A stretch of 64,000 bases of DNA from the NCBI GenBank assembly GCA_028821605.1, contig JAPPFM010000056.1:135466-199465 (forward strand). The letters run 5' to 3'. Under the pieces are notes generated by a model, which worked only from the letters and a program-made list of their open reading frames with translations, searched no databases and was not told where the DNA came from. Of the stretch, positions 8,455 to 52,495 are shown piece after piece. Source of the stretch: Candidatus Poribacteria bacterium. Lineage in GTDB: Bacteria > Poribacteria > WGA-4E > WGA-3G. The position numbers and the translations under genes are program-made. Positions within the stretch are counted from its first letter, which is position 1. Each line of letters begins with the position of its first letter.

Positions 8455-9099
8455 GTGAAGGAAAAACGTATGTCATCTATTGCAGCCCGAACCTACCTAA
8501 CCCCAGAAGAATATATCGTTGCCGAACGCAAGGCGACACTCAAAAGCGAATATCTGAGCGGCGAGATCGTCGCAATGTCGGGGGCAAGTGATACACATAA
8601 TCTTATCACGATGAATACGTCAAATGCCCTTTACAATCAATTGGCAGACCGAGGATGCAGAGTCTACGCCAGCGATATGCGCGTCGGAATTAGCGCAGGA
8701 GTTTCCTACTTCTATCTGGATATTGCCGTTACTTGTGATAAACCCCGCTTCGAGGATGACGTTTTCGATACACGCATCAATCCACAGGTTATTATTGAAG
8801 TGCTTTCTGATTCAACCTTAGGCTATGATCAAGGCGAAAAATTCATACGCTATCGGCGACTGGAATCACTTCAAGAATACATCCTTATTTCACAAGATCA
8901 GGTTCAAGTCGATCACTATCTCCGTCAAGGCAAACAATGGGTGCTTACTGAATTCAGCGCACTTGAGGATGTGTTACGGCTTGTTTCAATTGGTGCAGAA
9001 CTCCCCTTGCATCAGGTTTACAGATTCATCGATCTGGAAACCGATGATGCCCTTCAAACCACCCATACCGTCTCAAAAAGGGACTCTATTTCATGCTGA
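8455..9099 (+). CDS. Uma2 family (DUF820) putative restriction-endonuclease-like protein
   Basis: Uma2 hallmarks: YLTPEEYIVAERKA...SEYLSGEIVAMSGASDTHN, CRVYASDMRV, YFYLDIAV, PQVIIEVLSDST. Confidence 0.75.
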   Translation: MKEKRMSSIAARTYLTPEEYIVAERKATLKSEYLSGEIVAMSGASDTHNLITMNTSNALYNQLADRGCRVYASDMRVGISAGVSYFYLDIAVTCDKPRFEDDVFDTRINPQVIIEVLSDSTLGYDQGEKFIRYRRLESLQEYILISQDQVQVDHYLRQGKQWVLTEFSALEDVLRLVSIGAELPLHQVYRFIDLETDDALQTTHTVSKRDSISC

Positions 9100-11141
9100 C
9101 CCTTGAGCAACTCGTCACTTGTGGATTGGAAAAAGCAGAGGCGTTGCAGATAACCGAAGCCGTCAATCGGATATTGCCAACACAGTCCCCAACAGCCTGC
9201 TGGTACGAAATTTCGCGCTACATCCTCACGCCACAACACCCGTTTGCCCTGCACCAATTGCTTTATGAAACAGTATACGCCGACTTTGATCGTACGACAC
9301 ACGGTCCTCCACCTGCATGGTTTCCTACAGATGAAGACATCACCGAAGCAAATATAACGCGTCTAATGGCGGAATTACACATCAAAACCTACCCTGAGTT
9401 TCATGCCTGGTCAATTGCCAATCGTGACACGTTTTGGCAGATGATGATCGACACATTGGGGATCAAAGCAGCAGGCGTATATCCGAAGGCACAACGAGAC
9501 GCAACGGGTATCGCAACAAAACTTGCGAAGCTCAACATCGTCGAAAGCTGCTTTAAGGCACCTAACGATGCCATCGCGATTGTTGCCCAACGCGAAAACG
9601 ACGAAAGGCTGCAAACGCTCACCTATCAGGAACTGGAATCTCTCACAAATCGGGTTGCAAACGGACTTGTTGAAATCGGTATGGAGCAAGGCGACGCTAT
9701 AGCAATTGACATGCCGATGACTGCTGAATCTGTCGCTGTCTATTTGGGGATTGTCAAAGCAGGATGTGTTGTTGTTGGTATTGCCGATAGTTTTGCACCG
9801 GATGAGATAGCTACCCGTCTCCGTATTGGCAATGCAAAAGCAATCTTCACACAGGATTATATCAACAGAGCAAGTAAACGTCTCCCGTTGTATGAAAAGG
9901 TTATCGCTGCAAATGCCCCGAAAGCGATTGTTTTTTCTTCTGAAGGCGGTGACACTGTTGCGCGACCTCAACGTGAAGACGATATGACGTGGGGCGACTT
10001 CCTTAGTGACATGGAGACCTTCACTGCTGTTCCGTGCCATCCTGATGCACATACCAATATCCTTTTCTCCTCCGGCACCACTGGCGAACCGAAGGCGATT
10101 CCGTGGACACATACCACACCGATTAAAACCGCCGTAGATGCCTACCTACACCACGACATTCACCCCGGCGATGTGCTGGCATGGTACACAAATCTCGGTT
10201 GGATGATGGGACCTTGGCTCATCTACGCCAGTTTCATCAACAAAGCCACTATCGCCTTATATGATGGCGTGCCAACTGGGCGTGGCTTCGGTGTTTTTGT
10301 CCAAAATGCGGAGGTCAGCATGCTCGGTGTCGTGCCTACCCTTGTCCGCGCATGGAAGAATACAGGGTGTATGCACGGGCTGGACTGGCGTGCGATTCGA
10401 GCGTTCAGTTCGACGGGTGAATGCTCTAATCCGGAGGAGATGCTTTTCCTCATGTCCCTCGCTGACTATAAGCCGGTGATTGAATACTGTGGTGGCACCG
10501 AAATCGGAGGCGGTTATATCACTGGCACACGCGTCCAACCCGCTGCACCTTCTATGTTCACAACGCCAGCACTCGGTGTGGATTTCCTACTCTTTGATGG
10601 GAACGGGAAACCGACAGAAAACGGCGAAGTTTTCATCATCCCACCCTCGCTCGGTCTCTCTACGAGTTTGCTCAACGCTGACCACAATGAAGTCTATTTT
10701 GCAGGAACGCCGCAACCCAATCTACGCCGCCACGGCGATGCGATTGAGCGGTTAGGCAATGGCTTTGAAACCGAACCTTGGCTTGCGGGGATTAAATATC
10801 GCGTTCACGGTCGGGTTGACGATACGATGAACCTGAGCGGTATTAAGGTAAGTTCGGCAGAGATTGAAGAGGTGCTTAACGTCGTCAGTGAGGTACAGGA
10901 GACAGCAGCGGTCGCTGTCTCACCGAAAGATGGCGGTCCGAGTCAACTCGTCATCTACGCCGTGCTGACAGTATCAGAAACAGCACCCACAAAACAAGAA
11001 CTTCACACGACGTTGCAAACCGCGCTTTCCGCCCATCTCAACCCGTTATTCAGAATTCACGAGGTCGTTATCGTAAACGCATTACCGCGAACCGCTTCTA
11101 ATAAAATTATGCGTCGTCTTTTGCGCCAGCAAGCGATGTGA
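9093..11141 (+). CDS. AMP-binding acyl-CoA synthetase (acetyl-/acetoacetyl-CoA synthetase-like)
   Basis: AMP-binding signature LFSSGTTGEPKAIPWTH, an N-terminal ACS/AACS-like region (ANITRLMAELHIKTYPEFHAWSIANRDTFWQ) and a C-terminal SNKIMRRLL. The ATG overlaps the upstream Uma2 stop by 7 bp. Confidence 0.8.
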   Translation: MLTLEQLVTCGLEKAEALQITEAVNRILPTQSPTACWYEISRYILTPQHPFALHQLLYETVYADFDRTTHGPPPAWFPTDEDITEANITRLMAELHIKTYPEFHAWSIANRDTFWQMMIDTLGIKAAGVYPKAQRDATGIATKLAKLNIVESCFKAPNDAIAIVAQRENDERLQTLTYQELESLTNRVANGLVEIGMEQGDAIAIDMPMTAESVAVYLGIVKAGCVVVGIADSFAPDEIATRLRIGNAKAIFTQDYINRASKRLPLYEKVIAANAPKAIVFSSEGGDTVARPQREDDMTWGDFLSDMETFTAVPCHPDAHTNILFSSGTTGEPKAIPWTHTTPIKTAVDAYLHHDIHPGDVLAWYTNLGWMMGPWLIYASFINKATIALYDGVPTGRGFGVFVQNAEVSMLGVVPTLVRAWKNTGCMHGLDWRAIRAFSSTGECSNPEEMLFLMSLADYKPVIEYCGGTEIGGGYITGTRVQPAAPSMFTTPALGVDFLLFDGNGKPTENGEVFIIPPSLGLSTSLLNADHNEVYFAGTPQPNLRRHGDAIERLGNGFETEPWLAGIKYRVHGRVDDTMNLSGIKVSSAEIEEVLNVVSEVQETAAVAVSPKDGGPSQLVIYAVLTVSETAPTKQELHTTLQTALSAHLNPLFRIHEVVIVNALPRTASNKIMRRLLRQQAM

Positions 11142-11248
11142 CCTTTGCAAAAAGATTGACTTATGCAATTTTTTTAGGTATACTTAACAGATACCCGAGT
11201 GACATACACTTGTTTTTTCTATCACTTTGTGGAAAAGGAGATGTTCTG

Positions 11249-11992
11249 ATGGAAACGCACCCCAATGCACGCCACATCCCTTACGCTCCCACAGAAACTG
11301 CCGACCTATACCCTGAATCGGATGGAAAACCTATGGCTGAGACGGATATGCACGCAGTGGCTATCATCGATTTACGGCAACGTTTTGACGGCTTCTTCGC
11401 GGATAACCCGGATACTTATGTATCGGGGACTCTCATGATGTATGATATAGAGGGCCCCAGCCGCACAGCCGTCTCACCCGATATCCTCGTCTCTTTCGGC
11501 ATAGGCAAGAAACTCCGCCGCACCTATAAGGTGTGGGAAGAGGGAAAGCCGCCAGACTTCGTGATGGAGTTTTCGAGCAAAGGAACGTTTCAAAATGACT
11601 TAGGGCATAAAAAGGCACATTACGCGTCAATGGGAATACCGGAGTATTTTCTCTGCGATATAGATAGACGCTATCTGCCCACGCCGCTGATGGGGTTTCG
11701 CCTCAAAGGTGAGACTTATGAGCGGATACCCGAGAACGTAGATGGTAGTATTCCTTCTGTGACGTTAGGCGTATCGTTCCATCTGTTGGATGAGGGGTTA
11801 GCCGTTTATGCGGAAGCGATGGAACACTGGCTGCAAACGCCTGCAGAGGCAGCAGAGGCAGCAGAGCAGCGTGCGGAACAAGAAGCCGCCGCACACGCGC
11901 GTGAAGCCGCCGCACGCGCCGAAGCGGAAGCGGAAGTCTCGCGCCTGCGCGAGGAGCTCGAGCATCTCAAAGCGCGCTTGTCAGATGACTAA
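11249..11992 (+). CDS. Uma2 family (DUF820) protein with C-terminal Ala/Glu-rich coiled-coil tail
   Basis: Starts METHPNARHIPYAPTETADLYPESDGKPMAETDMH with SD aaggag 7 nt upstream; the track ORF start at 11138 lacks an RBS. The C-terminal tail is AEAAEAAEQRAEQEAAAHAREAAARAEAEAEVSRLREELEHLKARL. Confidence 0.75.
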   Translation: METHPNARHIPYAPTETADLYPESDGKPMAETDMHAVAIIDLRQRFDGFFADNPDTYVSGTLMMYDIEGPSRTAVSPDILVSFGIGKKLRRTYKVWEEGKPPDFVMEFSSKGTFQNDLGHKKAHYASMGIPEYFLCDIDRRYLPTPLMGFRLKGETYERIPENVDGSIPSVTLGVSFHLLDEGLAVYAEAMEHWLQTPAEAAEAAEQRAEQEAAAHAREAAARAEAEAEVSRLREELEHLKARLSDD

Positions 11993-12060: not shown

Positions 12061-13276
12061 TATGGAAAAACAGTTCAAAGTTAGAGCAGCACATTGTGAT
12101 TATCGCGCAACGGAAGAGGAAATCTATCAAACACTCCGTCGCATCACCGACCCGCTCACCCGTGCTTGGAAACCGATTGAAACCGCCAAGAAGGTGGTCA
12201 TGAAATTCAACATGATGAAGCCACCTGAGCGGATTATCTATTACGAGGGTCGGCGCCGAGAATTAGTAGATGATGCCACCTGCCGTGCCGTGCTGCGGTT
12301 GATTAAGGAGCATACGACAGCGCAGCTTATCGCGACTGACACAAACCCCTACACGCATGGACATCGGATGCCGCCTGATTTCAATTACCTGCACCATTTG
12401 AAAGAATTTGATGTGCAGTTCGTTGATTCCAACTTACCACCTTTCAAGGACTACGATGTGCCCGGCGGCGGTTCAATGTTTGACCGCTACACGTTGAGTG
12501 CGTGTTTCGACGATGCGGATGCGGTCGTCTCCGTGGCGAAGATGAAGAACCACGCCTTCATGGGGATTACCTTATGCACCAAAAACCTGTTCGGATTGCC
12601 GCCGATGCTCCTTCCAGAAGGGAGGACACGCAGTTATTACCACCATCTCATCCGCCTCTCCTATGTGCTTCCAGACCTGGCACTCATTACGAAGCCGTGT
12701 CTCAATATCATTGACGCATTGACCGGACAGTGGGGACGCGAATGGGGCGGCGAGGGCAGAATCTGTAACGCACTCATCGCGGGTGACCATCCAATCTCCA
12801 CCGATACTGTTGGGATGTACTTGATGGGACACGATCCGGCATCCGATTGGCCCACACCACCGTTCAAACGCGATCGGAACCATATCCTCATCGCTGCGCA
12901 GCGTGGATACGGCACTGTTAACCTCGATGACATCGATTGGGAGAGTGAAGTCACGGCACCCTTAGCGGAGTTTGATTCTGTCGAAACAGATACTCCTGAA
13001 ACAGTCGCGAACTGGCGACGGACAACGTGTGAGCAGGGGTTGGTCTATCAAGAAAATCAGAAAGAACTCATTGACCGGTATCGAGACAACTTCATCTATA
13101 TGCAAGGCGGTGAAGTCGTTTGGAGCGGACCGGATCCGTCGAATCTCGGCAGCCGTCGGCAGCTAAGCGGTAAAAAGAAGGACAGTGCGCTCTGGCTCAA
13201 GCTCGTTGATGCTGAGGAACATGAAGGTGAACGTTTTAACGTCTATGACGAGTGCTTGAAAGACTTTGCTGCATAA
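12061..13276 (+). CDS. DUF362-like domain protein (hypothetical)
   Basis: The K-V-V-M-K-F-N-M-M-K-P motif resembles the DUF362 N-terminal strand. The start is placed at MEKQF, which has a GGAG 7 nt upstream; 11996 and 12049 are alternative starts. Confidence 0.4.
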
Positions 13277-13386
13277 ATTCCTTTGTCTGAATCTCGGATT
13301 ATCATGGATGACGCCGATTTTAAGAGGTTTCTGACTTGAGAAAGACAGTCCACTTTGGATAGAAAAGTTAAGAAGGAGCGTTCAAA

Positions 13387-14139
13387 ATGGGTATCACCGA
13401 CGCGCAAAAGAAGCAATTGGACGAACAGGGGTGCATCGTCATTCCAGACGTGCTTTCCGACGAGGAGATTGAGGTCTATAGAGCCGATATTCTCAGGTTG
13501 GCAGAAGAGGAGAAGCAGAACGGGTTGGCGCGTCAACATACCGACGGGCGTGGACAGCATGTCCGTTGGTTGGTGAACAAGGGACAGATGTATGAGAAAC
13601 TCGTTGCCAGACCCAAAGTGATGCCCTTCTTTGAGCACCTCCTTGGTCCCGATTATACGTTGAGCACGCTTACCTCGAACATTATTGATCCGGGCGCACC
13701 AGATGGTGGCTACCACGTTGATAGCGTGTTAGGGTCTATGCCGGAGCCGCTGCCCAGTTTCCCACTGGTCGCCAACAGCCTCTGGCTGCTCGACGATTTC
13801 ACACCGGAGAACGGTGGTACACGTCACGTCCCCGGTATCCATCTTCAGCGAATTAAACCGCCCCCAGGCACGACGCACCACCCCGATGAGGTCCGACTCT
13901 CTGCCCCGAAAGGTTCCGTATTCCTGTTCAACGGTGCGATCTGGCATTCTGCGGGTGCCAACAAAACTGATCGGCAGCGCATCGCGTTGATCTGTTTCTG
14001 TTGCCGTTCTTTTATCAAACCGATGTTTGACTTCGTGCATCATCTCAACCCGGAAGTCGTCGAGCGCGCCACCCCAACCATGCGCCGAATCTACGGGTTT
14101 GATTCCCAACCTCAACCCCCAGATCAACCCACGCGGTAA
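13387..14139 (+). CDS. phytanoyl-CoA dioxygenase (PhyH) family Fe(II)/2-oxoglutarate oxygenase
   Basis: Facial-triad context GGYHVDS ... AIWHSAGAN, with an arginine in KTDRQRIAL. Confidence 0.75.
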   Translation: MGITDAQKKQLDEQGCIVIPDVLSDEEIEVYRADILRLAEEEKQNGLARQHTDGRGQHVRWLVNKGQMYEKLVARPKVMPFFEHLLGPDYTLSTLTSNIIDPGAPDGGYHVDSVLGSMPEPLPSFPLVANSLWLLDDFTPENGGTRHVPGIHLQRIKPPPGTTHHPDEVRLSAPKGSVFLFNGAIWHSAGANKTDRQRIALICFCCRSFIKPMFDFVHHLNPEVVERATPTMRRIYGFDSQPQPPDQPTR

Positions 14140-14186
14140 TTACATTTCACTGACGGGGTTTCTTAACTTCTCCTTTCATGATGGAT

Positions 14187-14212
14187 GCCCTCTTCGTTGG
14201 CGAGGGTTTTGG
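14187..14212 (+). terminator. weak intrinsic terminator (gccctc-ttcgttggc-gagggtttt)
   Basis: 5-6-bp stem, 9-nt loop, then TTTT, 48 nt after the PhyH stop. Confidence 0.35.
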
Positions 14213-14513
14213 AAGAACTCACACGCGGTTCTTCCTAACCTCGCAAATAAAACTGTACCCTTAACCGTAAATCTCACGTTATAACTTAAAGCGCATGCTT
14301 TAGCAATTTCTGACCTTTATGCAATAACCTATAAAAGGTCGTTATCTGATACCATTTTTAATTGAATACCTTTCAATGTGCATGTAGCATAAACTTTTAG
14401 TTTGTGCCACCCTATTTCCTTTCAGAAAAGTTGTTCATGCGATATTTATTTTCAGAAATGGTATGAGAACTGAATAATCGCTTCCTAAAAGGAGAACAAG
14501 AGGAGATTCTATT

Positions 14514-14939
14514 ATGACTATGATAACCGTTCAGTGGCAGAGATGTCTCAAGAACTCTCTTTGGTGTCAATTCAATGAAAAACTCTTGAGCAATGGTCGT
14601 TTTGAGACCCGTCTCGGTGACCATAGTGTCAATATTAGCGGCATCTATATCATCTGGACAGGGATTGACAACCGCACGGTACTTAAAGTCGGAAGCGGAA
14701 TTATTAAGGATAAATTGGAAGAACATCTCAGAGATCCTGAAATTCAAGCCTATAAACCTACACGATTATACGCTACGTGGGCTTCTACTCTATCTGTAAT
14801 TGGAGCAGAAGAGATCCAAAAAGGCGTAGAGAAGTTTCTTGATATTGTATTTAAACCGAAATTGGTAGAACACTTACCTGATGTTGATCTTGTAATGGTC
14901 AACCTACCTCGGTGGAATAAACCGGTGCCCCCACTGTGA
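14514..14939 (+). CDS. GIY-YIG nuclease-domain small protein (UPF0213/YhbQ-like core with 40-aa N-terminal extension)
   Basis: Motifs SGIYIIW...VLKVGSG.IKDKLEEH follow the GIY-YIG consensus. A good SD gaggag lies 9 nt upstream. The antisense ORF 14412..14747 was rejected. Confidence 0.45.
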   Translation: MTMITVQWQRCLKNSLWCQFNEKLLSNGRFETRLGDHSVNISGIYIIWTGIDNRTVLKVGSGIIKDKLEEHLRDPEIQAYKPTRLYATWASTLSVIGAEEIQKGVEKFLDIVFKPKLVEHLPDVDLVMVNLPRWNKPVPPL

Positions 14940-15178
14940 GAAGTCCAACTATAGTGGATTTCAAAATTGATGAAACACGCCACAGCGGGCGAGGGAATCT
15001 TGCCCCTACGAGAGGTGGTCTCCGCGCAACCCTGACATAGGAGATTGCCTGCTGTGTTTCTAACCTCACCTAATTCCGAAAACCGGTAATTGTCCTTTCC
15101 TCATACAAGAGCAGGCTCCAACTCGCGATCATGGAACCAACAGAAACCCGCATGGCTCTGGCTATGTCTTGTTTTTAC

Positions 15179-15208
15179 TTGCCTTCATCAGAATTGGCAT
15201 GCTATACT
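15179..15208 (+). promoter_or_regulatory. sigma70-like promoter candidate (TTGCCT-18 nt-TATACT) upstream of the RM-fusion gene
   Basis: The hexamers are read directly from the sequence, 59 nt upstream of the ATG at 15267. Confidence 0.3.
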
Positions 15209-15266
15209 GATGCCATATCCACGTCCTTTTTTAATGACCCAAGCCTAAATATTTACAGAAAATATC

Positions 15267-18224
15267 ATGCCAAACCGACGCGAAACAACAATCACAAATG
15301 AATTGGTGAACATCTTACGAAACATGCGCCACGGATGGGAGCTCGAAACGGAAGTCAACGCTTTCATCCGAGGCAATAGCGAACTTGATGCCATTGTCAT
15401 TGAACACGGTAGAGAACCCGTCGGGATTGAAGCAAAATTCGCAACCACCACCAATGCCAGAAATTTGATTGAACAGGCAGAAACAAGGCTTGTTCTGGAA
15501 CTTGAAACGGAATATCATGTCGTTGGAAAAACGCTCAATAACGTCATGGCAATCCTGTACCCTGACCGTTTTAAGACGATGCAGGGAAAGGATATCAACC
15601 CACACCTACGCGCTGCGGATGACCTACAATACAAACTCGTCAATACAGTCGGTAATACCGTAGGACACTTCCCAGAAAATGGATGGGCGGAAGGCACTGT
15701 AGGCGACATCGCAAACGCGCTCCACGTTGGCGCAATGCCGACCTCTCAACTTGAAGAGGCAGCGGAAGAGATGGAGAAAAGTATCAACAAGGCAGCTTAC
15801 CTTCTTGAAGATGCTATCGTTGATCATCCTGCCATCGCCAAGAAAATTGAGACGATTCTGCACCAAGAGGTTTCCTCTAAAACGGAAGATAACACAGAAG
15901 AAAAACCGAATGTCCAGACACTCCGCATGGCAGCATTGATTATCACCGATGCTTTTGTCTTCCAAAGTTCCCTTGCCGGTAAAGCAGAGATGGAATCTGT
16001 TCGCTCACTCCGACAACTCCTACCGATAATTGATTATGCTGATGTTATTGAGGACTGGAACACGATTCTCAAGGTTAATTATCGCCCAATCTTTGAGGAT
16101 GCCCGAAACCTCGTTGAGGCACTCGCTACGGATGACAGACTTGTCAAATATATCTTAAAACTCCTCTGTGAGGCTGCAAAAGACCTTGTTGATACCGGTA
16201 TTGCCCAGATTCACGAACTCGCGGGTATTGTGTTCCAAAAACTCATCACCGACAGGAAATACGTCAAGGCGAACTATACGCTTCCCGAAAGCGCGGTGCT
16301 GCTCTCCACCCTTGTGATGCCTGAACTGCCGAAGGGTAAACTCCCGAAAGTGGCAGACTTCGCTTGCGGAACAGGGGCACTCCTCAACGGTGTCTATCAA
16401 CGTATTCTGTCTCTGTATGAGCAATCGGGCGGCAACGGTAAAGACATCCATCAGCGAATGTTAGAGAAGCACATCGGTGGTGTAGATATTATGCCGAATG
16501 CGACACACCTCACCGCTGCTGCGCTTGCGAGTACGTATGCAGGTGTCAAAATCGGCGGCACGCAAATAGTTACTGCCCCTTACGGTGTAATCGATACTGG
16601 CGGCTACGCGATCGGCTCATTGGAATTGCTTGATGATATAAAACTATTTGACACAGAGGCAGAGCAGATAGGCGGTGAGGAAAATACCGTCGTTAAACTC
16701 CAACAGACATTCCAACACGGTGATATTGATATTGTCATACAAAATCCTCCCTTCACAAGGCCGGGATCGGATAGCAATACCGAGGTGCCAAAATCTACTT
16801 TCCAAGGCAGTGATCGACCCAAAGAAGATCAGAAGTTGATGCAGGCCACGCTGAAATCTAAAAATACAAGAGTAACTGATGGCGCTAACGGCTTCGTTTC
16901 TGCTTTCGTAGACCTTGCTGACAAAAAACTGAGGAACGGTGGTACAATGGGTTTCATTTTGCCACTGACAGTGTTGAGATCTCCGACTACGCAAGAACTG
17001 CGCGATATGTGGGCAAACGAATACCACAACGTAGTCGTGATAACCATGGCGCAGGCAAAAGCAGAAGACTGCACATTCTCTGCAGACACAACTATGGCAG
17101 AATGTATCATTGTCGCAACGAAAGGCATAGATGAAAACACTGGACGTGGGAAGTTTATCTGTCTTGCTGATAAACCACATAGTTCTCTTGAATCCGTTGA
17201 AATAGCAAATCGGGTTAATAGAAGCGACGAAGCACGAAGACTTGAAGATGCCCCTAACGGCGGTGATACTATTAACGTTGGAAACACAAATAACGGTCTA
17301 ATGTTGGATTGCCCAATCAAAGAAGGTGTTCCGTGGATCGCAACACGAGCAAGATCCGTGGCATTACTACAGATGGCAAACAAGCTGACAATTGGGAAAC
17401 TGCACTTTCCGATGTCAAGAGAGACTTTACCGATTCACATTTGCCAAGTACAAGATATTGCAAAGGTGGGTTCAGCAGATTCTTATCGGGAAAAAGATGG
17501 CCCGTTTATTATGGTTGAGGATTATGAGCCAAATAGTGATGGTTATGACGCATTGTGGAGAGTTGATGCTCCTTTACAGCGTGCTATGATTGCCGCACCG
17601 GATTCTACTGCGATACCACGTTCAAATGACAATGCTATGGTCAAGCGGATTTTAGACTGTTTCAGCAGAACTCACTATCATATTAATCTGAGATTTACCT
17701 CAAATTCGATTATTTCTTCCTTGACAGAAAAGCCCTCCATCGGTGTACGTTCAATGATTAACGTTTTACTCAATGACCAGCGTCACGAAATTGCTTGGAC
17801 GGTGTGGTGCAACTCAAGTTTAGGTTTGTTTTGTCACTGGGCACACAGCAGTAAACAACAGATGGGACGTGGCACCCTACGTCAACAAACATTAGAGACA
17901 CTGCCTACGCTGGATGTCCGTCAACTCTCCGATGAGGCGTTAGCAAACGCTGAAAAGGTGTTTGAACGGTTGAAATATAAACGTATGCTGCCTTTCAATG
18001 AGTGCGATCATGACCCCGTACGCAAAGAATTAGACTGCTGTCTACTAACAGAGGTGTTGGGAATTACGAGCGATAACGTGCTTGAATCCATGCAGACACT
18101 CCGCGAGATGCTCTGTGCTGAACCGAGTATTCACGGTGGGAAACAGTCTAAGTGCGACCTTGATACCGAGTTGGCGATGCTTAAGAAGAAGCGGATTGCT
18201 TTTCCGAGTTGGTATGTTGATTAA
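15267..18224 (+). CDS. MmeI-like single-chain restriction-modification enzyme candidate (Type IIG/IIL): N-terminal PD-ExK nuclease, gamma-class N6-adenine MTase, C-terminal TRD
   Basis: Order of motifs: D41...E55-A-K57 (ELDAIVIEHGREPVGIEAKF), then MTase motif I DFACGTGALL, motif IV NPPF, and GGTMGFILP, followed by about 380 aa of presumed target-recognition domain. The 985-aa length and domain order match MmeI-family enzymes. Confidence 0.65.
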   Translation: MPNRRETTITNELVNILRNMRHGWELETEVNAFIRGNSELDAIVIEHGREPVGIEAKFATTTNARNLIEQAETRLVLELETEYHVVGKTLNNVMAILYPDRFKTMQGKDINPHLRAADDLQYKLVNTVGNTVGHFPENGWAEGTVGDIANALHVGAMPTSQLEEAAEEMEKSINKAAYLLEDAIVDHPAIAKKIETILHQEVSSKTEDNTEEKPNVQTLRMAALIITDAFVFQSSLAGKAEMESVRSLRQLLPIIDYADVIEDWNTILKVNYRPIFEDARNLVEALATDDRLVKYILKLLCEAAKDLVDTGIAQIHELAGIVFQKLITDRKYVKANYTLPESAVLLSTLVMPELPKGKLPKVADFACGTGALLNGVYQRILSLYEQSGGNGKDIHQRMLEKHIGGVDIMPNATHLTAAALASTYAGVKIGGTQIVTAPYGVIDTGGYAIGSLELLDDIKLFDTEAEQIGGEENTVVKLQQTFQHGDIDIVIQNPPFTRPGSDSNTEVPKSTFQGSDRPKEDQKLMQATLKSKNTRVTDGANGFVSAFVDLADKKLRNGGTMGFILPLTVLRSPTTQELRDMWANEYHNVVVITMAQAKAEDCTFSADTTMAECIIVATKGIDENTGRGKFICLADKPHSSLESVEIANRVNRSDEARRLEDAPNGGDTINVGNTNNGLMLDCPIKEGVPWIATRARSVALLQMANKLTIGKLHFPMSRETLPIHICQVQDIAKVGSADSYREKDGPFIMVEDYEPNSDGYDALWRVDAPLQRAMIAAPDSTAIPRSNDNAMVKRILDCFSRTHYHINLRFTSNSIISSLTEKPSIGVRSMINVLLNDQRHEIAWTVWCNSSLGLFCHWAHSSKQQMGRGTLRQQTLETLPTLDVRQLSDEALANAEKVFERLKYKRMLPFNECDHDPVRKELDCCLLTEVLGITSDNVLESMQTLREMLCAEPSIHGGKQSKCDLDTELAMLKKKRIAFPSWYVD

Positions 18225-18260
18225 TTTAAACTACCTGCAGGAAATCCGGAGAAATAAATT

Positions 18261-19067
18261 ATGCCAAACAAACGGTATCAAGAATTACTATTCTCATCTC
18301 AGAAAAAACTGGATATTTCTGCTGAGCAGATCAGAAAATTAATCCCTACCTCAGGTGAAATAGGTACACTAATTGAAGAAATGTTCAGGTCCTATCTGGC
18401 AGAAGTATTACCTGAAAAAATAGGGATATCAAACGGATTTGTAATGGATTCGGAAGGTGGCGAATCAAGGCAAATGGATATTATCCTATATGATAAAATG
18501 AACACACCTCGCATATTTACCAGTACCGCTGCTCAAGTTTTCCCAGTTGAATCTACATTCGCTTGTGGTGAAATTAAGACTCAACTCAATGCAAGAGAAC
18601 TAAAAGATAGTTTTGAAAAATGCTTAAGTTACAAGAATCTACATCGAAAAGCTTATTTTGATCAAAATGATAGCGATATAAAGTACTTCCATAAATTGTT
18701 CGGAGAAGAAAAAGAACATTGGGAATCAATTTTTTTCACTATTTCTGTTGAGTGTATGACTGGTAGTGGTCTGTTGATGGAATACCAACGTATTATTGAG
18801 GCAGAAAGCCTACCTCTTCATAAGAGAATAGATACAATTTTTTCATTATATAGCACCGATGGGAATAACATAATAGCAAATTGTAGTGAAGAAGGACTCG
18901 ATTTTCTTCCTAATAAGAATGGTCAGTTTCGTGCTATATCAGTGGAAAAATCCTGGGCATTGTTTATCAATCTGTTATTGAGATACATGGTTAACGTACC
19001 CGCGGAACCTATTAATATGATTAAATATGCTGGGAGATCCCTTAGTGATTACGGAATTATAAATTAA
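18261..19067 (+). CDS. AT-rich orphan hypothetical protein with PD-(D/E)xK-like core (QMDIILYD ... ACGEIK)
   Basis: About 35% GC and A/T-ending codons, against about 50% for the window. The putative catalytic strands are D-hydrophobic (MDIILYD) and E-x-K (GEIKTQ). No family could be assigned by eye. Confidence 0.4.
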   Translation: MPNKRYQELLFSSQKKLDISAEQIRKLIPTSGEIGTLIEEMFRSYLAEVLPEKIGISNGFVMDSEGGESRQMDIILYDKMNTPRIFTSTAAQVFPVESTFACGEIKTQLNARELKDSFEKCLSYKNLHRKAYFDQNDSDIKYFHKLFGEEKEHWESIFFTISVECMTGSGLLMEYQRIIEAESLPLHKRIDTIFSLYSTDGNNIIANCSEEGLDFLPNKNGQFRAISVEKSWALFINLLLRYMVNVPAEPINMIKYAGRSLSDYGIIN

Positions 19068-19119
19068 GATTCTGGATCCAGTATATTCTGATCATACTTA
19101 CTATTTTGGAGAGATTGAC

Positions 19120-19518
19120 ATGCAAATTGAAGATTATTTTAACTTTTTGGCAGAAGATGATATTCGCATTAAAGGCACACGTATAGGCATAGAATCTGTC
19201 CTAGACGAGTATATTAACTACAAACAAACAGCAGAGACAATTGCTGAACGTTTTCATACGGTTACACTGGAACAGGTTTATGCTACAATCCTATATTATC
19301 TGCAAAATAAAGAAAAAGTTGGTGCGTATTTGGAGGATTATCTGGAATATTGCCGAAAAGCTCGAGAAGAGCAGGAGAAAAATCCTTCTCCTGGTGTTAT
19401 TCGCCTGCGTGAACTTATAGCAGAAAGGCGAAAAACTTCTGATAATTCACGCCCGGATATCTCGAAAAACAGTTCCGAAAGCACAACACCATCTCCATCC
19501 AAATATGAACGGGAATAA
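19120..19518 (+). CDS. DUF433 domain protein (antitoxin-like partner of DUF5615)
   Basis: IRIKGTRIGIESVLDEY...ERFHTVTLEQVYATILYY matches the DUF433 pattern (GTRI.V..VL....EEI...YP.LT.E.V.AAL.YY). Confidence 0.6.
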   Translation: MQIEDYFNFLAEDDIRIKGTRIGIESVLDEYINYKQTAETIAERFHTVTLEQVYATILYYLQNKEKVGAYLEDYLEYCRKAREEQEKNPSPGVIRLRELIAERRKTSDNSRPDISKNSSESTTPSPSKYERE

Positions 19519-19520
19519 AG

Positions 19521-19880
19521 ATGCGTCGGTATCTGTTGGACGAACATATTCCGCCAATCTACCGCACGCAATTGCTTTATCATGAATCCTCACTAACGGT
19601 CTTGGAGATTGGCGATCAAGGCGTACCTGCAAGAGGAACATCCGACCCGGAAATCCTGCGCTGGTGTGAGCAGAACGACTTCAGTTTGATAACAAACAAT
19701 CGGAAAAGTATGCCCCAACATCTCGCTGACCATCTATCAGCAGGACATCATATACCAGGCATTTTCACGATTAATCTCAATGCGTCAATAGGATTGATAA
19801 TTGAACAATTGATTCTCATTGCTGGAGCATCCGATGAAGATGAATATATTGACCAAATCGTCTTCATCCCACTTAGATGA
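19521..19880 (+). CDS. DUF5615 (Mut7-C/PIN-like) putative toxin
   Basis: LLDEHIPPI...SDPEILRWCEQNDFSLITNN matches the DUF5615 consensus. The start lies 3 nt after the DUF433 stop, so the two form a classic coupled pair. Confidence 0.6.
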   Translation: MRRYLLDEHIPPIYRTQLLYHESSLTVLEIGDQGVPARGTSDPEILRWCEQNDFSLITNNRKSMPQHLADHLSAGHHIPGIFTINLNASIGLIIEQLILIAGASDEDEYIDQIVFIPLR

Positions 19881-19904
19881 GGAAAAGGATGGAAATCTCC
19901 AAAG

Positions 19905-20693
19905 TTAGTTTCGTTCGATCATTGACTGCTTGAGTGAACCCCACGTTACCGCCAGTTTTCCAATAGGTTCAACCGCCAACGCCAGTGTATGCAATCGCCT
20001 CACGTCGGCATCACTTAACGCCCCCTCAAAAATGGCAACTTCGTCAATAGCACCGGCGTACCAGATACCGCCCAAGTGCTGTGTGTAGGCGATTGTCGGC
20101 TTGTGGGCGGCACCGTAAGCGATACTGATTGGATCGGGTGCCGGAGTCGTCTTTTTTAGTTCACCGTCCAGGTAGATACGGACAGATTTTTTGCTCTCAA
20201 CAACTCCAACAACATGATGCCACTCGCCATCGGCGGGGAACGGCACATAAGCGGAGGGCCAATGCTTTGCCGCGTTTGCTGTGTCCGCACGAATCCAGAT
20301 GCCAACACTATTGTTATCAAGCAGTTGGATGCCGTAGTTGTATTTGTCATAGATCGGATTTCGTGTGCCAAGGGTCGGCTTAATAATCGCCTCCATCGTC
20401 ACAGAAGGGAAGAAGAGGTCCTCACCCATTCGTATCAAATCAACAGCACCGTCAAAATCAAGGGCTTCACTGCGAAACCCATCTATTTGGTTGGGTTTGC
20501 CTGTAATGGTTCCGCCGTTCTTTCCGAAAACATCTTTAACGTCTTTGCCTTGAACGGTGTTTTTGTCAAGGGTCCAAAGTGCCGCAAGCCCCATTTTGAC
20601 TCTTGGATCCTCGGCTACTGCGGATTGAATCACCGTGATAGAAATCACGAAACCGACTAAAAGCAGAGCGGAGAGAGACAATTTCGTTTTCAT
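19905..20693 (-). CDS. secreted LamG/concanavalin-A-like jelly-roll domain protein
   Basis: Signal peptide MKTKLSLSALLLVGFVISITVIQSAVA. LamG-type core (ALDFDGAVDLI...; WHHVVGVVESKKSVRIYLDGEL). Paralog of the next gene. Confidence 0.65.
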   Translation of the reverse strand: MKTKLSLSALLLVGFVISITVIQSAVAEDPRVKMGLAALWTLDKNTVQGKDVKDVFGKNGGTITGKPNQIDGFRSEALDFDGAVDLIRMGEDLFFPSVTMEAIIKPTLGTRNPIYDKYNYGIQLLDNNSVGIWIRADTANAAKHWPSAYVPFPADGEWHHVVGVVESKKSVRIYLDGELKKTTPAPDPISIAYGAAHKPTIAYTQHLGGIWYAGAIDEVAIFEGALSDADVRRLHTLALAVEPIGKLAVTWGSLKQSMIERN

Positions 20694-20742
20694 TGAAACA
20701 TTCCTCCTTAGATTCTAATTTCCTTCTCTGGAATCTTCAAAG

Positions 20743-21561
20743 TTAGTTCTGTTCAGCCATTGATTGTTTTATCCTGCCCCATGTTACAGTGAGTTTACCT
20801 GACGCTTCAACTGACAATGCATCCCGAAGTTTCATCGTGATGTCTTGGATCTCATTTTCAGTCAACGCCTGACTGAAAATTGCCACATCATCAAGCACTC
20901 CTGCCCAATAATCGCCTCTTGGCGCGCCCCAGCGTCCGATTCTTATCGGTTCTGTATTGTGGTCGGGCGGAATATCGGTCGCAGTTTCGCCCTCCATCTC
21001 GCCGTCTATATACGCCCGAAGCACCTTGCCATCGTATGTCGCAGCGACGTGATGCCATTTACCGTCCGCAGCGACTGTTGTGCTAAAGGCAGTCTTCCAA
21101 TTGGCACCCGTCGTGTAGTTCACGCCCAACAATTTTGTATCACCAGCAATAAAGACACCGTAATTTCTCGGTCTCCCAGCAATAGGCTCTTTTCCGAGCA
21201 CGGTTTGCCACTTACCGTTCGGATTCGTTTTGACCCATGCTGATATCGTGTATTCCGTGAGATTGAAAATATCATCGTGTCGGATTTCCACGATATTACC
21301 GTTTCCATCGAAATCGAGGGCTCTTCCCGTCTTGCCCGGAACCCGTTTCGCGCCCATAATATCGCCATCATGCCCGTTCCCTGAAGCATCCTCTGCCGTA
21401 TCGCCTCCGTTCTCGTCAAAAAGCCATGCGGCAAGGAGCGCATCTTCCAATACATTTGCTACGGATATGCTGGTCGTACACAGTAGCCCAATCAGAGTTA
21501 TTAATATCCCTACAAGTGATTTCTGAACAGCCATCATACGCTCCTTTTCCAGCAACATCAA
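20743..21561 (-). CDS. secreted LamG/concanavalin-A-like jelly-roll domain protein (paralog)
   Basis: Signal-like TM LVGILITLIGLLCTTSISVA. Core motifs ALDFDGNGNIVEI...YTISAWVK...WHHVAATYDGKVLRAYIDGE. The ATG overlaps the upstream PhyH stop (ATGA). Confidence 0.65.
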   Translation of the reverse strand: MMLLEKERMMAVQKSLVGILITLIGLLCTTSISVANVLEDALLAAWLFDENGGDTAEDASGNGHDGDIMGAKRVPGKTGRALDFDGNGNIVEIRHDDIFNLTEYTISAWVKTNPNGKWQTVLGKEPIAGRPRNYGVFIAGDTKLLGVNYTTGANWKTAFSTTVAADGKWHHVAATYDGKVLRAYIDGEMEGETATDIPPDHNTEPIRIGRWGAPRGDYWAGVLDDVAIFSQALTENEIQDITMKLRDALSVEASGKLTVTWGRIKQSMAEQN

Positions 21562-49333: not shown

Positions 49334-52300
49334 ATGCGATATATCAAACCCATCGTTTGGCTCATCTTTATCCTCTCTGGTGCCAGTGGACTCATTTATG
49401 AAGTCATCTGGATGCGGCAGCTCACGCTCATCTTCGGCAGCACCGTCTTCGCAACGAGTACCGTCCTGACCGCATTTATGGCAGGACTCGCACTCGGCAG
49501 CTACTACTTCGGTAGGAAGATCGACGAAAGCACACAGTCACCACTACGGATTTACGCGCTTTTGGAAGCGGGTATCGGTGCGTTCTGCCTTGTCTGGCCC
49601 CTCATTTTAGGGGCATTAAGTGCCATTTATGTTTTGGTTCATCGCAATATCACATCAGAGTTCTACACCCTCTCGCTCATCCGGTTCGTGCTAACGTTCG
49701 GGGTTCTGTTAATTCCCTCCACACTGATGGGTGGCACTCTACCGGTGCTAACCCGCTTTTTTGTGAAAAGGTTGGAGCAGCTCGGCACCAATATTGGGAT
49801 TCTGTATGCGTTGAACACATTCGGTGCCGTTATCGGAACTGTGGCAGCAGGATTTTTCCTAATTGAAGCGTTAGGTGTTCGATGGACGCTCGGTGTCGGT
49901 ATCGCTATTAATTTCGGCGTAGCAGCGGTTGCATTAGCGTTATCACAGAAGGTATCGGAAACAGAAGAGGTCAGCAGTCAGCAAAGCGATTTTCTTGCTG
50001 ATAGCCGACAGCCGACGGTTTCCGATAGCCATCCCTCCGACAACCGACAACCGACAACCGACAACTCTAAATTGGTATTATGGGCAATAGGCATCTCCGG
50101 GTTCTGTGCGTTGGCTTATGAAGTGTTGTGGACACGCATCATGGTCTTCTTCCTTGGGAGTACAACCTATGCGTTCGCGACGATGCTTGCTGCGTTCCTA
50201 TTCGGTATCGCGCTGGGGAGTATGGTATTTGCACGTTGGGTTGACCGGGTTAAACAACCTGTAGTAGTTTTCGGTATTATTCAACTCGGTATCGGACTTT
50301 TCGCGCTTCTCCTGATGCCCGCGTTTGAGGAGTTGTACGGCATGAGCCGTGCGTTCCAGTCCACCTTTGGCGGAAGTAGGTTCTGGGCATTTTTCTCCTG
50401 TTTCCTTGTGATGTGCCTTCCAACGTTTCTGATGGGCACGAGTTTTCCACTTGTGACGAAAATCTATACCGGCAGCGCACGTCAACTCGGTAGGAGCATT
50501 GGGAACGTCTATGCAGTCAACACAGTCGGGAGCATTTTAGGGGCGTTTTTTGCAGGATTCATCCTGATCCCACTTCTGGGCATCCGACCGAGCATCGTGC
50601 TAATGGTGGCTTTGAACACAGGCATCGGGTGCCTGCTTGTTTTAAGAGGTGAATGGCGGGCTGAAACCGGGAAATCGCTCCTACAAGGGGTAAGCATCGG
50701 GATGCCGATCCTCAACGCTGGATTGGCTGTTATCATGTTGCTCACCGTGAATCAACCGCTCTTTCTGAAAAGTGCCATTTTCAAAACGCAACGCCCCGGC
50801 GATACACTCGTTGATTACAACGAGGAGGTGGACGCGACCGTAACAACGTTAAAAGATGATGAAGGGGTCTATCGTCTCTATGTAGACACAAATCAGGCAG
50901 CGGATGCCTCGCGCTGGGATTCACCGTCGCATCGCGTCATCGCACATCTACCGTTGCTACTGCATCCACGTCCAAAACGTGCCCTCGTCGTCGGGTTCGG
51001 TATGGGGCTTACTTCGTATTCCATAACACAGCACGGTGTGCAAGTTGACGCAGTGGAACTGTCGAGCGGCGTGATTTCCGCTGCACAGAAGTATTTCACG
51101 CACGTCAACGGGAATGTGTTTGAAAACCCTCAATTTAACTATAGACTCAACGATGGGCGAAACCATATCCTGATGACGAAGACGAAATACGATATGATCT
51201 CGACGGGGATCATTCATCCGCTCGTCAGTGCGGGGAGTTCCAACATTTACACCGCCGATTTCTACCGTTTGTGTCGTCGGATTTTGAGCGAAGATGGGAT
51301 CATGTGCCAGTGGGTGCCATTGCATCGCTTACCAGAGGCGCACTATAAGATGATTGTGCGCACCTTCATTGAGGTGTTCCCGCACACAACGCTCTGGTAT
51401 AAGTACACACCGGATTTTGTGATTCTTATCGGCACACGTGAACCGCTGCGGATTGACTACAAAAACTTCATCGAACGCTCACAGATAGCGAGTATTCGAG
51501 AAGGGCTTGCTGCCGATGATCTGGATGGGATGTCGCTGCTCGATTCATTCATGATGGGACCTGAGAATGTACGTAAGTACGCAGACATTGGACCTATCCA
51601 CACAGACAACCGACCTCGATTGGAATTTTTCCGTGGGGCAGATTTGGTGGGTACAACAACACAGAACGTTAAAGGGATGGCAGAATACCGGGAACGGGTG
51701 CTGCCTTACCTCACCAACTACGGCACGACACTCGCAGAGAAACGGGACGCACGAGAGAAACTTGACACCTATTTTAGAGCCACACAGAGATTGATTCGTG
51801 GACAAATTGCTTATGCAAGCGCGCAGTATCAAAATGCCGCGGCACTCATGAACGAAGCGGTGGAACTCAATCCCGTTGACGAGACGATTCGCTATAACTT
51901 TGGGGTCGTCGCAGGTTTAATTCGCGAAGGTGAACAGGAAGAACTCCAACAGATTGAACGGCAGGTACAGCAGACGATGGCACAAAACCCTGATGACCTT
52001 CAGGGACACCTCCATTTGGCAACGTTGTATGAGATGCAAGGTGAACTCGGAAAGGCAGCAACGGAGTTAGAGGAATTACTCAGACGCGATCCGAAGAGAT
52101 TTGAGGTCTATCTGCTCTTAGGTCCGCTGTATGAACGTCAGGAACGCTACAAAGACGCGCTTCGCACCTATGAACGGCTTGAACGACTGGAGACAACTTT
52201 GCAATTGCCAGCACCCATTTTTGCAGCAATGGCGGGCCTCCATCTGCAATTGGAAAACATAACTGAAGCCGAAAAATATGGAAAGAAGGGCATCGCCGCG

Positions 52301-52495
52301 GATGTCAATTCGTGGCGGTCCTATTACGTTCTCGGAAACGTTTACGCCGCCATGAATCAGCTGGAGAAACAGATAGATGCCTACAACAACGCTTTGAAAG
52401 CGATTGATGAGGTCATTCGTGTCACCGCTGATTCGAGCGATCTATTGAGTGCCAGAGAACAGATCCAGAACGAACTTGAACAACTTAAAAGATAA
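49334..52495 (+). CDS. fused polytopic-membrane / spermidine-synthase-like (polyamine aminopropyltransferase fold) protein with C-terminal TPR repeats
   Basis: About 12 TM helices in two halves. Then ALVVGFGMGLTSYSITQHG...VDAVELSSGVI...NYRLNDGRNHI (SpeE-like). Then TPR-like repeats (YNFGVVAGL..., LATLYEMQGELGKA, YLLLGPLYERQERYKDA). Confidence 0.7.
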   Translation: MRYIKPIVWLIFILSGASGLIYEVIWMRQLTLIFGSTVFATSTVLTAFMAGLALGSYYFGRKIDESTQSPLRIYALLEAGIGAFCLVWPLILGALSAIYVLVHRNITSEFYTLSLIRFVLTFGVLLIPSTLMGGTLPVLTRFFVKRLEQLGTNIGILYALNTFGAVIGTVAAGFFLIEALGVRWTLGVGIAINFGVAAVALALSQKVSETEEVSSQQSDFLADSRQPTVSDSHPSDNRQPTTDNSKLVLWAIGISGFCALAYEVLWTRIMVFFLGSTTYAFATMLAAFLFGIALGSMVFARWVDRVKQPVVVFGIIQLGIGLFALLLMPAFEELYGMSRAFQSTFGGSRFWAFFSCFLVMCLPTFLMGTSFPLVTKIYTGSARQLGRSIGNVYAVNTVGSILGAFFAGFILIPLLGIRPSIVLMVALNTGIGCLLVLRGEWRAETGKSLLQGVSIGMPILNAGLAVIMLLTVNQPLFLKSAIFKTQRPGDTLVDYNEEVDATVTTLKDDEGVYRLYVDTNQAADASRWDSPSHRVIAHLPLLLHPRPKRALVVGFGMGLTSYSITQHGVQVDAVELSSGVISAAQKYFTHVNGNVFENPQFNYRLNDGRNHILMTKTKYDMISTGIIHPLVSAGSSNIYTADFYRLCRRILSEDGIMCQWVPLHRLPEAHYKMIVRTFIEVFPHTTLWYKYTPDFVILIGTREPLRIDYKNFIERSQIASIREGLAADDLDGMSLLDSFMMGPENVRKYADIGPIHTDNRPRLEFFRGADLVGTTTQNVKGMAEYRERVLPYLTNYGTTLAEKRDAREKLDTYFRATQRLIRGQIAYASAQYQNAAALMNEAVELNPVDETIRYNFGVVAGLIREGEQEELQQIERQVQQTMAQNPDDLQGHLHLATLYEMQGELGKAATELEELLRRDPKRFEVYLLLGPLYERQERYKDALRTYERLERLETTLQLPAPIFAAMAGLHLQLENITEAEKYGKKGIAADVNSWRSYYVLGNVYAAMNQLEKQIDAYNNALKAIDEVIRVTADSSDLLSAREQIQNELEQLKR

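Follow-up and report, generated by a model that had tools for sequence, protein, structure and literature searches.

A probable stand-alone NucC-family nuclease without a linked cyclase in Candidatus Poribacteria

An AT-rich gene located between a DNA methyltransferase gene and a toxin-antitoxin-like pair, in a stretch of 64,000 nucleotides from a Candidatus Poribacteria genome (assembly GCA_028821605.1, contig JAPPFM010000056.1, positions 135,466 to 199,465; hereafter the window), raises two related questions: what kind of protein it encodes and, should this be a nuclease, how the cell keeps such an enzyme under control. The gene (18261-19067, plus strand) had been singled out in a previous reading of the sequence, referred to below as the original prediction, as an orphan of no assignable family with a nuclease core of the PD-(D/E)xK type, possibly acquired horizontally and acting in defence. 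NucC is the textbook case of a restriction-like nuclease that is switched on by a cyclic-oligonucleotide alarm signal. The analysis presented here leads us to consider the product of this gene as a stand-alone member of the NucC family that is devoid of the NucC signalling apparatus; the family itself is already known, and the locus does not represent a new kind of system. A horizontally mobile, stand-alone defence nuclease of this family is the reading we favour, with a probability of around 0.55, on the basis of sequence comparisons, a structural model and the analogy with characterized relatives.

A NucC-family protein and its active site

The open reading frame was found in the plus strand exactly where it had been placed. 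It starts with ATG, encodes 268 amino acids and is preceded at 9 nt by GGAG (18248-18251, plus strand), a Shine-Dalgarno ribosome-binding site. Since the chance of 268 codons free of stops at the base composition of the gene is ~4e-10, and the ratio of nonsynonymous to synonymous substitution rates (dN/dS) against six orthologues ranges between 0.10 and 0.21, this is a real gene under purifying selection. Its guanine plus cytosine (GC) content is 0.348 (0.283 at third codon positions, GC3), while the window as a whole reaches 0.480, the methyltransferase gene just upstream 0.465 and PhyH, further upstream, 0.552, and its most frequent codons are GAA, AAA, GAT, ATT, ATA and AAT; the drop to about 35% GC and the richness in AAA and ATT codons initially noted were thus borne out by the measured values.

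The description of the gene as an orphan, in contrast, is refuted by a Pfam assignment, by matches to NucC structures and by the number of homologues. The protein matched Pfam DUF6602 (PF20247) with 81 bits, the gathering threshold being 27 (E 6.6e-23, profile positions 7-104 of 104), as well as the PADLOC profiles 'PD_DExK, CRISPR-associated' (2e-35) and 'NucC endonuclease effector' (1e-26). The solved NucC structures from Serratia, Vibrio, E. coli and P. aeruginosa were recovered by sequence, with E 2.4e-14 in a single-sequence phmmer search and down to E 1.5e-22 with the family profile; these matches span only residues 7-135 of the nuclease, and its C-terminal half has no detectable sequence similarity to NucC. 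At least 173 homologues were found above the search cut-off in a large protein collection and, among the 120 homologues listed, identities range from 45 to 100%, most sequences are full-length (~266-278 amino acids) and all of them carry PF20247. A profile search over 1.84 billion cluster representatives gave 6037 relatives at E<=1e-3, 96 of them at E<=1e-30.

An AlphaFold2 model, obtained from an alignment of 60 homologues, reached a mean predicted local distance difference test (pLDDT) score of 90.4 and a predicted template-modelling (pTM) score of 0.89. When it was compared with the PDB using Foldseek, NucC entries took the first 14 places (E ~1e-14, TM scores 0.65-0.81, ~255 columns). The model has the restriction-endonuclease-like alpha/beta core, so that the PD-(D/E)xK core surmised at first is also the predicted fold, and it contains the full architecture of the NucC monomer, including non-core elements that build the trimer in NucC, with an N-terminal alpha-0 helix and a hairpin predicted at residues 144-151, at the position of the gate loop. 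The nearest fold relatives outside NucC are type II restriction enzymes, which have also been reported as relatives of NucC itself (bioRxiv 10.1101/694703). The type IIP/IIF enzymes NgoMIV, Cfr10I, Bse634I, SgrAI and Kpn2I are 9-18% identical to the nuclease and lack the embellishments specific to NucC.

The alignment with E. coli NucC has no gaps over residues 12-130, hence the numbering of both proteins is identical in this region. The NucC motif IDx30EAK occupies residues 72-106, with Asp73 and Glu104 binding Mg2+ and the D73N substitution giving an inactive protein (bioRxiv 10.1101/694703). In the nuclease this motif reads M72-D73-x30-E104-I105-K106, with the same spacing, and the two strands originally proposed as catalytic, MDIILYD (residues 72-78) and ACGEIK (residues 101-106), proved correct, Asp73 (codon 18477-18479, plus strand) and Glu104 and Lys106 (Glu104-Ile105-Lys106 codons, 18570-18578, plus strand) aligning residue for residue with D73 and E104-A-K106 of NucC. 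These three residues are invariant in all 60 sequences of the clade alignment, and in 88 representatives of the wider DUF6602 family D73 is present in 87, E104 in 85 and K106 in 86; E97, G35, P51, G59, P95 and Y256 are conserved in these representatives as strongly as the catalytic residues. Judging from the alignments, the active site (D73, E97, E104, K106) is intact and invariant.

The resemblance to NucC (PDB 6P7O, 6P7P, 6Q1H, 6UXF and 7ZGV) extends therefore from the family profile to the catalytic motif, the alpha-0 helix and the hairpin, although the nuclease is only 18-22% identical to NucC overall and 25-30 residues longer. Sequence and model together point to a DNA endonuclease that depends on Mg2+ and belongs to the NucC family (Pfam DUF6602), with a restriction-enzyme-like PD-(D/E)xK fold to which the NucC-specific elements are added. 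It would cut DNA with two acidic residues and one lysine, in the Mg2+-dependent manner of NucC and the type II enzymes, and its target would be phage DNA or, in the manner of abortive infection, the DNA of the host. As for the original prediction as a whole, the fold class, the catalytic residues and the horizontal acquisition (see below) stood, while the novelty of the family did not.

The signal pocket and the search for a cyclase

Since a nuclease of this type would kill the cell if left unregulated, the protein is probably held inactive; by analogy with NucC, it would remain so in oligomeric form until paired active sites are brought together by an allosteric event. NucC goes from homotrimer to hexamer upon ligand binding, and its activation requires one molecule of cyclic tri-AMP (cAAA) in a pocket on the three-fold axis, where the phosphates are bound by Arg53 and Thr226, each adenine is stacked against Tyr81 and the ligand is covered by a gate loop with His136 and Tyr141 as its latch; mutation of any of these five residues abolishes activation (bioRxiv 10.1101/694703).

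At the aligned positions the nuclease differs from NucC. Lys53 (codon 18417-18419, plus strand) takes the place of the phosphate-binding Arg53, and Asn81 (codon 18501-18503, plus strand) that of the adenine-stacking Tyr81. At position 53, 95% of the clade has K, the four solved NucCs all have R, and the wider DUF6602 family has S, R, N or K; at position 81, 95% of the clade has N, the four solved NucCs all have Y, and the wider family has K, R or N. The residues next to Asn81, T82-P83-R84, are 88-98% conserved in the clade. The position aligned with Thr226 is Ala248 in the nuclease and Thr in 60% of the clade, in a column of low confidence, the HMMER and MAFFT alignments being one residue apart, and the clade varies strongly over segment 134-145, which corresponds to the gate-loop latch region. 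The GTVP motif that bears Thr226 is visible, among the solved NucCs, only in that of Vibrio, and also in a NucC from an Agrobacterium plasmid (241 amino acids), which retains R53 and Y81 and whose gene overlaps a gene for a nucleotidyltransferase of the SMODS type. Since positions 53 and 81 vary across the wider family, the cAAA pocket looks like a speciality of NucC within the larger DUF6602 family. The replacement of cAAA-contacting residues by others that are in turn conserved in the clade points, at the level of sequence, to a different ligand or regulator.

The genomic context was explored in parallel. PADLOC identified no CD-NTase (cGAS/DncV-like nucleotidyltransferase), Cas10 or other cyclase among 37 open reading frames of the 64-kb window plus five island proteins, nor did HORMA/TRIP13 genes appear beside the nuclease, in contrast with NucC. 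Neighbourhoods of 4-10 kb to each side of every homologue were also inspected, and no cyclase or Cas10 was present beside any of ~29 homologous loci within that distance; an isolated Cas6 was found 5 kb from the nuclease homologue in one of them (L015; L and a number designate the loci compared with the window). Since no cyclase lies nearby at any locus, and given the changes from Arg53 to Lys and from Tyr81 to Asn, the trigger would probably be other than the canonical cAAA made by an adjacent cyclase, a conclusion that draws mainly on the replacement of Tyr81 and on the genomic context.

The same data can be considered from the opposite side, taking the protein as an ordinary NucC effector activated by cyclic oligoadenylates, which would be supplied in trans by a cyclic-oligonucleotide-based anti-phage signalling system (CBASS) or a type III CRISPR system located elsewhere in the genome. 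The predicted fold is that of NucC over its full length, trimer- and pocket-forming elements included, a positive charge is kept at position 53, Thr is the residue of the clade majority at position 248, and the 88-98% conservation around N81-T82-P83-R84 is what would be expected of a functional ligand site. NucC homologues are known as accessory nucleases of type III CRISPR systems (bioRxiv 10.1101/694703), and sponge symbionts have been reported to be enriched in CRISPR (PMC8163846). However, 95% of the clade has Asn in place of the tyrosine that is essential for activation of NucC by cAAA, conservation is lacking in the latch region, both pocket positions vary in the wider family, and neither the window nor the surveyed neighbourhoods, with their lone Cas6, revealed a cyclase or a Cas10. 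We regard this explanation as quite unlikely.

The upstream methyltransferase and the accessory block

The nuclease gene is flanked upstream by a gene encoding a 985-amino-acid N6-adenine DNA methyltransferase of the Eco57I/PglX type (15267-18224, plus strand; NPPF motif; Pfam Eco57I, 1.2e-8; PglX/BrxX in the PDB, 1.5e-5), with weak matches to type IIG, PglX/BrxX and MAD2 models. Downstream are the genes for an antitoxin-like DUF433 protein of 132 amino acids (19120-19518, plus strand; Pfam DUF433, 1.5e-6) and for its toxin-like DUF5615 partner, of 119 amino acids (19521-19880, plus strand; Pfam DUF5615, 5.9e-7). The placement of the gene between restriction-modification and toxin-antitoxin genes, advanced when the locus was first described, is therefore accurate. 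Comparison by blastn with L042, a syntenic Poribacteria locus with ~90% nucleotide identity and a methyltransferase 96% identical to that of the window, revealed homology over positions 15027-18223, through the methyltransferase stop, that resumes at 19881, with ~9 nt between both segments in L042. The 1657-bp block comprising the nuclease, DUF433 and DUF5615 genes (18224-19880, plus strand) is thus an indel within a variable island, present in one genome and absent from the other, and the gene is inserted in the literal, DNA-level sense of the term.

No convincing direct or inverted repeats flank the block, the window has no tRNA gene, and no Rfam match was obtained in 13000-21000. Other syntenic genomes contain the methyltransferase alone (L044) or the methyltransferase with DUF433 (L043), while L004 carries the nuclease without the methyltransferase and a 47-amino-acid remnant of DUF5615. 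A DUF433 gene follows the nuclease also in L016/L055, L019 and L054, and comes directly after the methyltransferase in L043. In this last locus, free of the nuclease, the 125 nt that separate DUF433 from the methyltransferase gene (L043:6998-7122) contain a near-consensus promoter for DUF433 (TTGACG, 17 nt, TATAAT). Because no comparable promoter precedes DUF433 in the window, the gene is probably co-transcribed there with the nuclease gene.

The proximity of the methyltransferase raises the question of whether the nuclease is the cleavage subunit of a restriction-modification system, either as a classical type II enzyme with a specificity of its own or as a non-specific module recruited by the methyltransferase, the target-recognition domain of the latter providing the specificity in a split type IIG or type III-like fashion. 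Both genes are in the same strand, with 37 nt from the methyltransferase stop to the nuclease ATG, and a consensus scan of the 36-nt intergenic gap disclosed neither a promoter-like nor a terminator-like site. Members of the closest clade (68-100% identity) nearly always have the same methyltransferase, of 985-990 amino acids, 34-37 nt upstream, an arrangement shared by the window, L016/L055, L017, L018/L054 and L019 across three different neighbourhoods, DUF433 usually coming next. L004 is the only member of this clade that lacks the methyltransferase, yet the latter often occurs without the nuclease, which fits the loss of the restriction gene from a restriction-modification pair. A homologue with 53% identity, L021, follows a second large methyltransferase, an N6_Mtase/Eco57I protein of 1015 amino acids that is unrelated to the first except for the catalytic core, and the nearest fold relatives outside NucC are, as mentioned above, restriction enzymes.

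Against these arguments, 22 of 28 nuclease loci, L004 included, have no adjacent methyltransferase, and no NCBIfam restriction-enzyme model matches the nuclease. The methyltransferase family (1212 matches at E<=1e-10) is far larger than the nuclease clade, and the methyltransferase loci sampled (L042-L044), all at the syntenic site between PhyH and LamG genes, are free of the nuclease. Synonymous divergence is comparable in the two genes, so the pair may stem from a single insertion followed by co-inheritance.

The comparison with L002 bears on the two versions of this hypothesis in opposite ways. In this locus a 100%-identical nuclease adjoins a methyltransferase that is only 44-68% identical at residues 500-850, with a 470-nt stretch that cannot be aligned as DNA. 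Aligned with window positions 16081-18224, L002:1-2144 forms a mosaic, the protein being 100% identical at residues 250-400 and near-identity returning at the 3' end of the methyltransferase gene and through the nuclease gene. From the sequence, the difference looks like a swapped target-recognition region, resulting from recombination between strains. An unchanged nuclease next to a diverged methyltransferase, like the lack of an adjacent methyltransferase in most loci, sets the gene apart from the type IIP/IIF enzymes mentioned above, and by this indirect evidence a classical type II pair with matched specificities appears unlikely; the recruited-module version would fit the identical nuclease beside the diverged methyltransferase.

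Both large methyltransferases contain an N-terminal hD-x(9-13)-E-x-K motif (window; L021:107-3154): ELDAIVIEHGREPVGIEAKF and RLDILITDEKSDVFAMIECK. In the protein of the window it lies within residues 1-58 (15267-15440), as D41...E55-x-K57, and is invariant in 40 orthologues, while the L021 protein gave a match to HSDR_N_2 below the threshold. Pfam scans of the isolated methyltransferase N-terminus produced no match, and an AlphaFold2 model of residues 1-330, built from a shallow alignment, was unusable (mean pLDDT 43.9). With this putative nuclease motif, recognized by eye, both enzymes may be complete type IIG proteins. On balance a role of the nuclease as a restriction subunit seems rather improbable, although it is the main alternative to the reading we favour; the methyltransferase would more probably be a gene that often accompanies the nuclease in the island, within the closest clade, and not an obligatory partner.

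A more speculative possibility, to which we give little credence, is that the clade represents a new regulatory class of NucC-fold nuclease. It could respond to a signal different from cAAA through the re-modelled and conserved pocket (K53/N81/T82/P83/R84), as a 'public' single-gene immune effector shared horizontally across the sponge microbiome; or, in Poribacteria, it could be a detachable subunit that lends non-specific cleavage to a type IIG-like methyltransferase, which would recruit it and whose recognition domain could be exchanged with no change in the nuclease. To our knowledge, no restriction-modification type with a detachable cleavage subunit on a recognition-swappable methyltransferase has been described.

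Several other elements of the window deserve mention. The island is bordered by the PhyH gene (13387-14139, plus strand) and by a gene for a LamG-domain protein (19905-20693, minus strand). Between PhyH and the methyltransferase there is an open reading frame of 141 codons (14514-14939, plus strand; GC 0.42) with no Pfam or PADLOC match, found at the same place in L042 and L044. It includes the sequence 'SGIYIIWTG...KVGSG', which by eye resembles a GIY-YIG nuclease motif, and may be part of the methyltransferase island. Further away are three genes of the Uma2 family (PF05685, putative restriction-endonuclease-like), all in the plus strand (8455-9099, 11138-11992 and 54884-55591), two of which flank the gene of an AMP-binding enzyme. 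A protein of 1963 amino acids (55596-61487, plus strand) combines many leucine-rich repeats with cohesin, dockerin and FlgD-Ig domains and is of the eukaryote-like repeat type reported as enriched in sponge symbionts. A candidate second methyltransferase island, suggested by a PADLOC 'mad2' match (4e-10) at 49334-52495 (plus strand), was discarded, the gene encoding a 1053-amino-acid fusion of MFS, spermidine-synthase-like methyltransferase and TPR segments; this PADLOC model cross-reacts with methyltransferases that do not act on DNA.

Distribution, mobility and a role in defence

The locus survey, with one genome per species, comprised 26 loci. Metagenome-assembled genomes (MAGs) carrying the nuclease belong to at least 10 higher taxa: Candidatus Poribacteria (several), 'Candidatus Porisulfidus', Spirochaetia, Dadabacteria, Alpha- and Gammaproteobacteria, Arenicellales, Oxydemutatoraceae, Nitrospirales, Binatia, Dehalococcoidia and Longimicrobiales. 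One contig with the exact protein of the window is labelled ROBB21-1, a label that we take to refer to the work of Robbins et al. on sponge MAGs, in which most of these phyla, although not Binatia, are recorded (PMC8163846). Together the taxa resemble a consortium typical of marine sponges, with which most of the MAGs are probably associated. In a neighbour-joining tree (without bootstrap) Poribacteria are scattered over at least three positions, mixed with Spirochaetia, Dadabacteria and other groups, and the GC content of the nuclease gene is below that of its flanks in 28 of 30 loci, by 5-23 points. The horizontal acquisition initially proposed is supported by the indel, the difference in GC and the conflict between gene tree and taxonomy.

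Two incomplete copies were also recorded. In a Nitrospirales MAG (L030:10001-10783) no intact open reading frame was called across the match to the nuclease, and in a Longimicrobiales MAG (L041:10001-10339) only residues 25-137 were matched; these disrupted or truncated copies suggest occasional decay of the gene. A viral origin was considered and rejected, a pattern scan of IMG/VR giving no close relative and BFVD no significant fold match. GenBank phages yielded only two weak matches, to the N-terminal part, and plasmids of cultured organisms only matches of ~30% identity over the N-terminal half.

The neighbours of the homologues turned out to be diverse. The original prediction had looked to helicases or ATPases, and to a defence setting in general, as the context that would support it. 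Helicases were not found in the surveyed neighbourhoods; ~6 of 29 loci adjoin large methyltransferases of the restriction-modification type, several have toxin-antitoxin genes or transposases, an AAA_14/DUF4143 ATPase was also encountered, and many homologues are single genes among housekeeping genes, a mixed outcome for this expectation. The methyltransferase aside, just one neighbour recurs, a HicB-like protein of 145 amino acids that is present in three loci (L032-L034); other small genes resembling antitoxins or encoding helix-turn-helix (HTH) proteins are a WYL gene in L031 and an HTH gene in L018. Clustering of the neighbours and Pfam scans of the small flanking open reading frames revealed no small immunity or antitoxin partner conserved across loci.

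This variety led us to consider functions outside immunity, the protein being either a selfish, addictive nuclease, similar to a toxin and linked to DUF433/DUF5615, or a nuclease for DNA repair or recombination. A single indel block contains the nuclease and the toxin-antitoxin-like pair, small antitoxin-like genes are frequent around the homologues, and many homologues are isolated copies among housekeeping genes. Nevertheless, no single small partner is conserved across loci, so that a dedicated antitoxin is lacking; no repair-gene neighbourhood recurs, phage or viral copies were not found, and every characterized relative, namely NucC in CBASS or type III CRISPR systems and Damona, is an anti-phage effector. 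A non-immune function is therefore very unlikely in our opinion.

Damona, a single-gene DUF6602 cassette of the Vibrio cholerae chromosomal integron that confers phage resistance and has also been reported in Acinetobacter prophages (bioRxiv 10.1101/2024.07.02.601686), is by analogy the nearest functional precedent for a DUF6602 protein that lacks a cyclase. Compared by their descriptions, both are stand-alone DUF6602 proteins with no cyclase partner and both match the same profiles of the PADLOC/DefenseFinder type, for the CRISPR-associated PD_DExK nuclease and the CBASS small endonuclease. They differ in that Damona is found in an integron cassette and in prophages, whereas the clade described here was found only in uncultured, probably sponge-associated MAGs and in no phage record. 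A further context of DUF6602 without a cyclase is offered by the small, mobilizable plasmid pA2503 of Acinetobacter baumannii (L046:2214-4327), where a DUF6602 gene of 281 codons lies between those of an 'Abi family protein' and a SEC-C-domain protein.

With this precedent, a defence role for the stand-alone nuclease is plausible. Several considerations weigh against the reading we favour. Nuclease activity, oligomeric state and trigger alike are predictions; Lys53 may well have kept the ability to bind a phosphate, and the alignment around Thr226 is weak. A cyclase may be encoded elsewhere in the genome, the inspected neighbourhoods covering 4-10 kb to each side. The presence of many homologues among housekeeping genes means that context alone does not prove a function in defence, and the near-constant position of the nuclease behind the same methyltransferase in the closest clade, together with the frequent occurrence of that methyltransferase without it, is the asymmetry to be expected of a restriction subunit. 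These points are reflected in the probability of around 0.55 given above for a horizontally mobile, stand-alone NucC-family defence nuclease.

The results place NucC within a much larger DUF6602 family, in which the active site is invariant and the cAAA pocket is not conserved, and define in it one clade without a linked cyclase. How a potentially lethal nuclease is controlled under these circumstances is a question that also concerns Damona. Defence genes have been found to be enriched and laterally transferred in sponge symbionts (PMC8163846), and the exchange across phyla observed here fits that published sharing. If its plausible role in defence is accepted, the clade would illustrate clearly how a small defence gene passes between unrelated bacteria that live in the same host-associated community.

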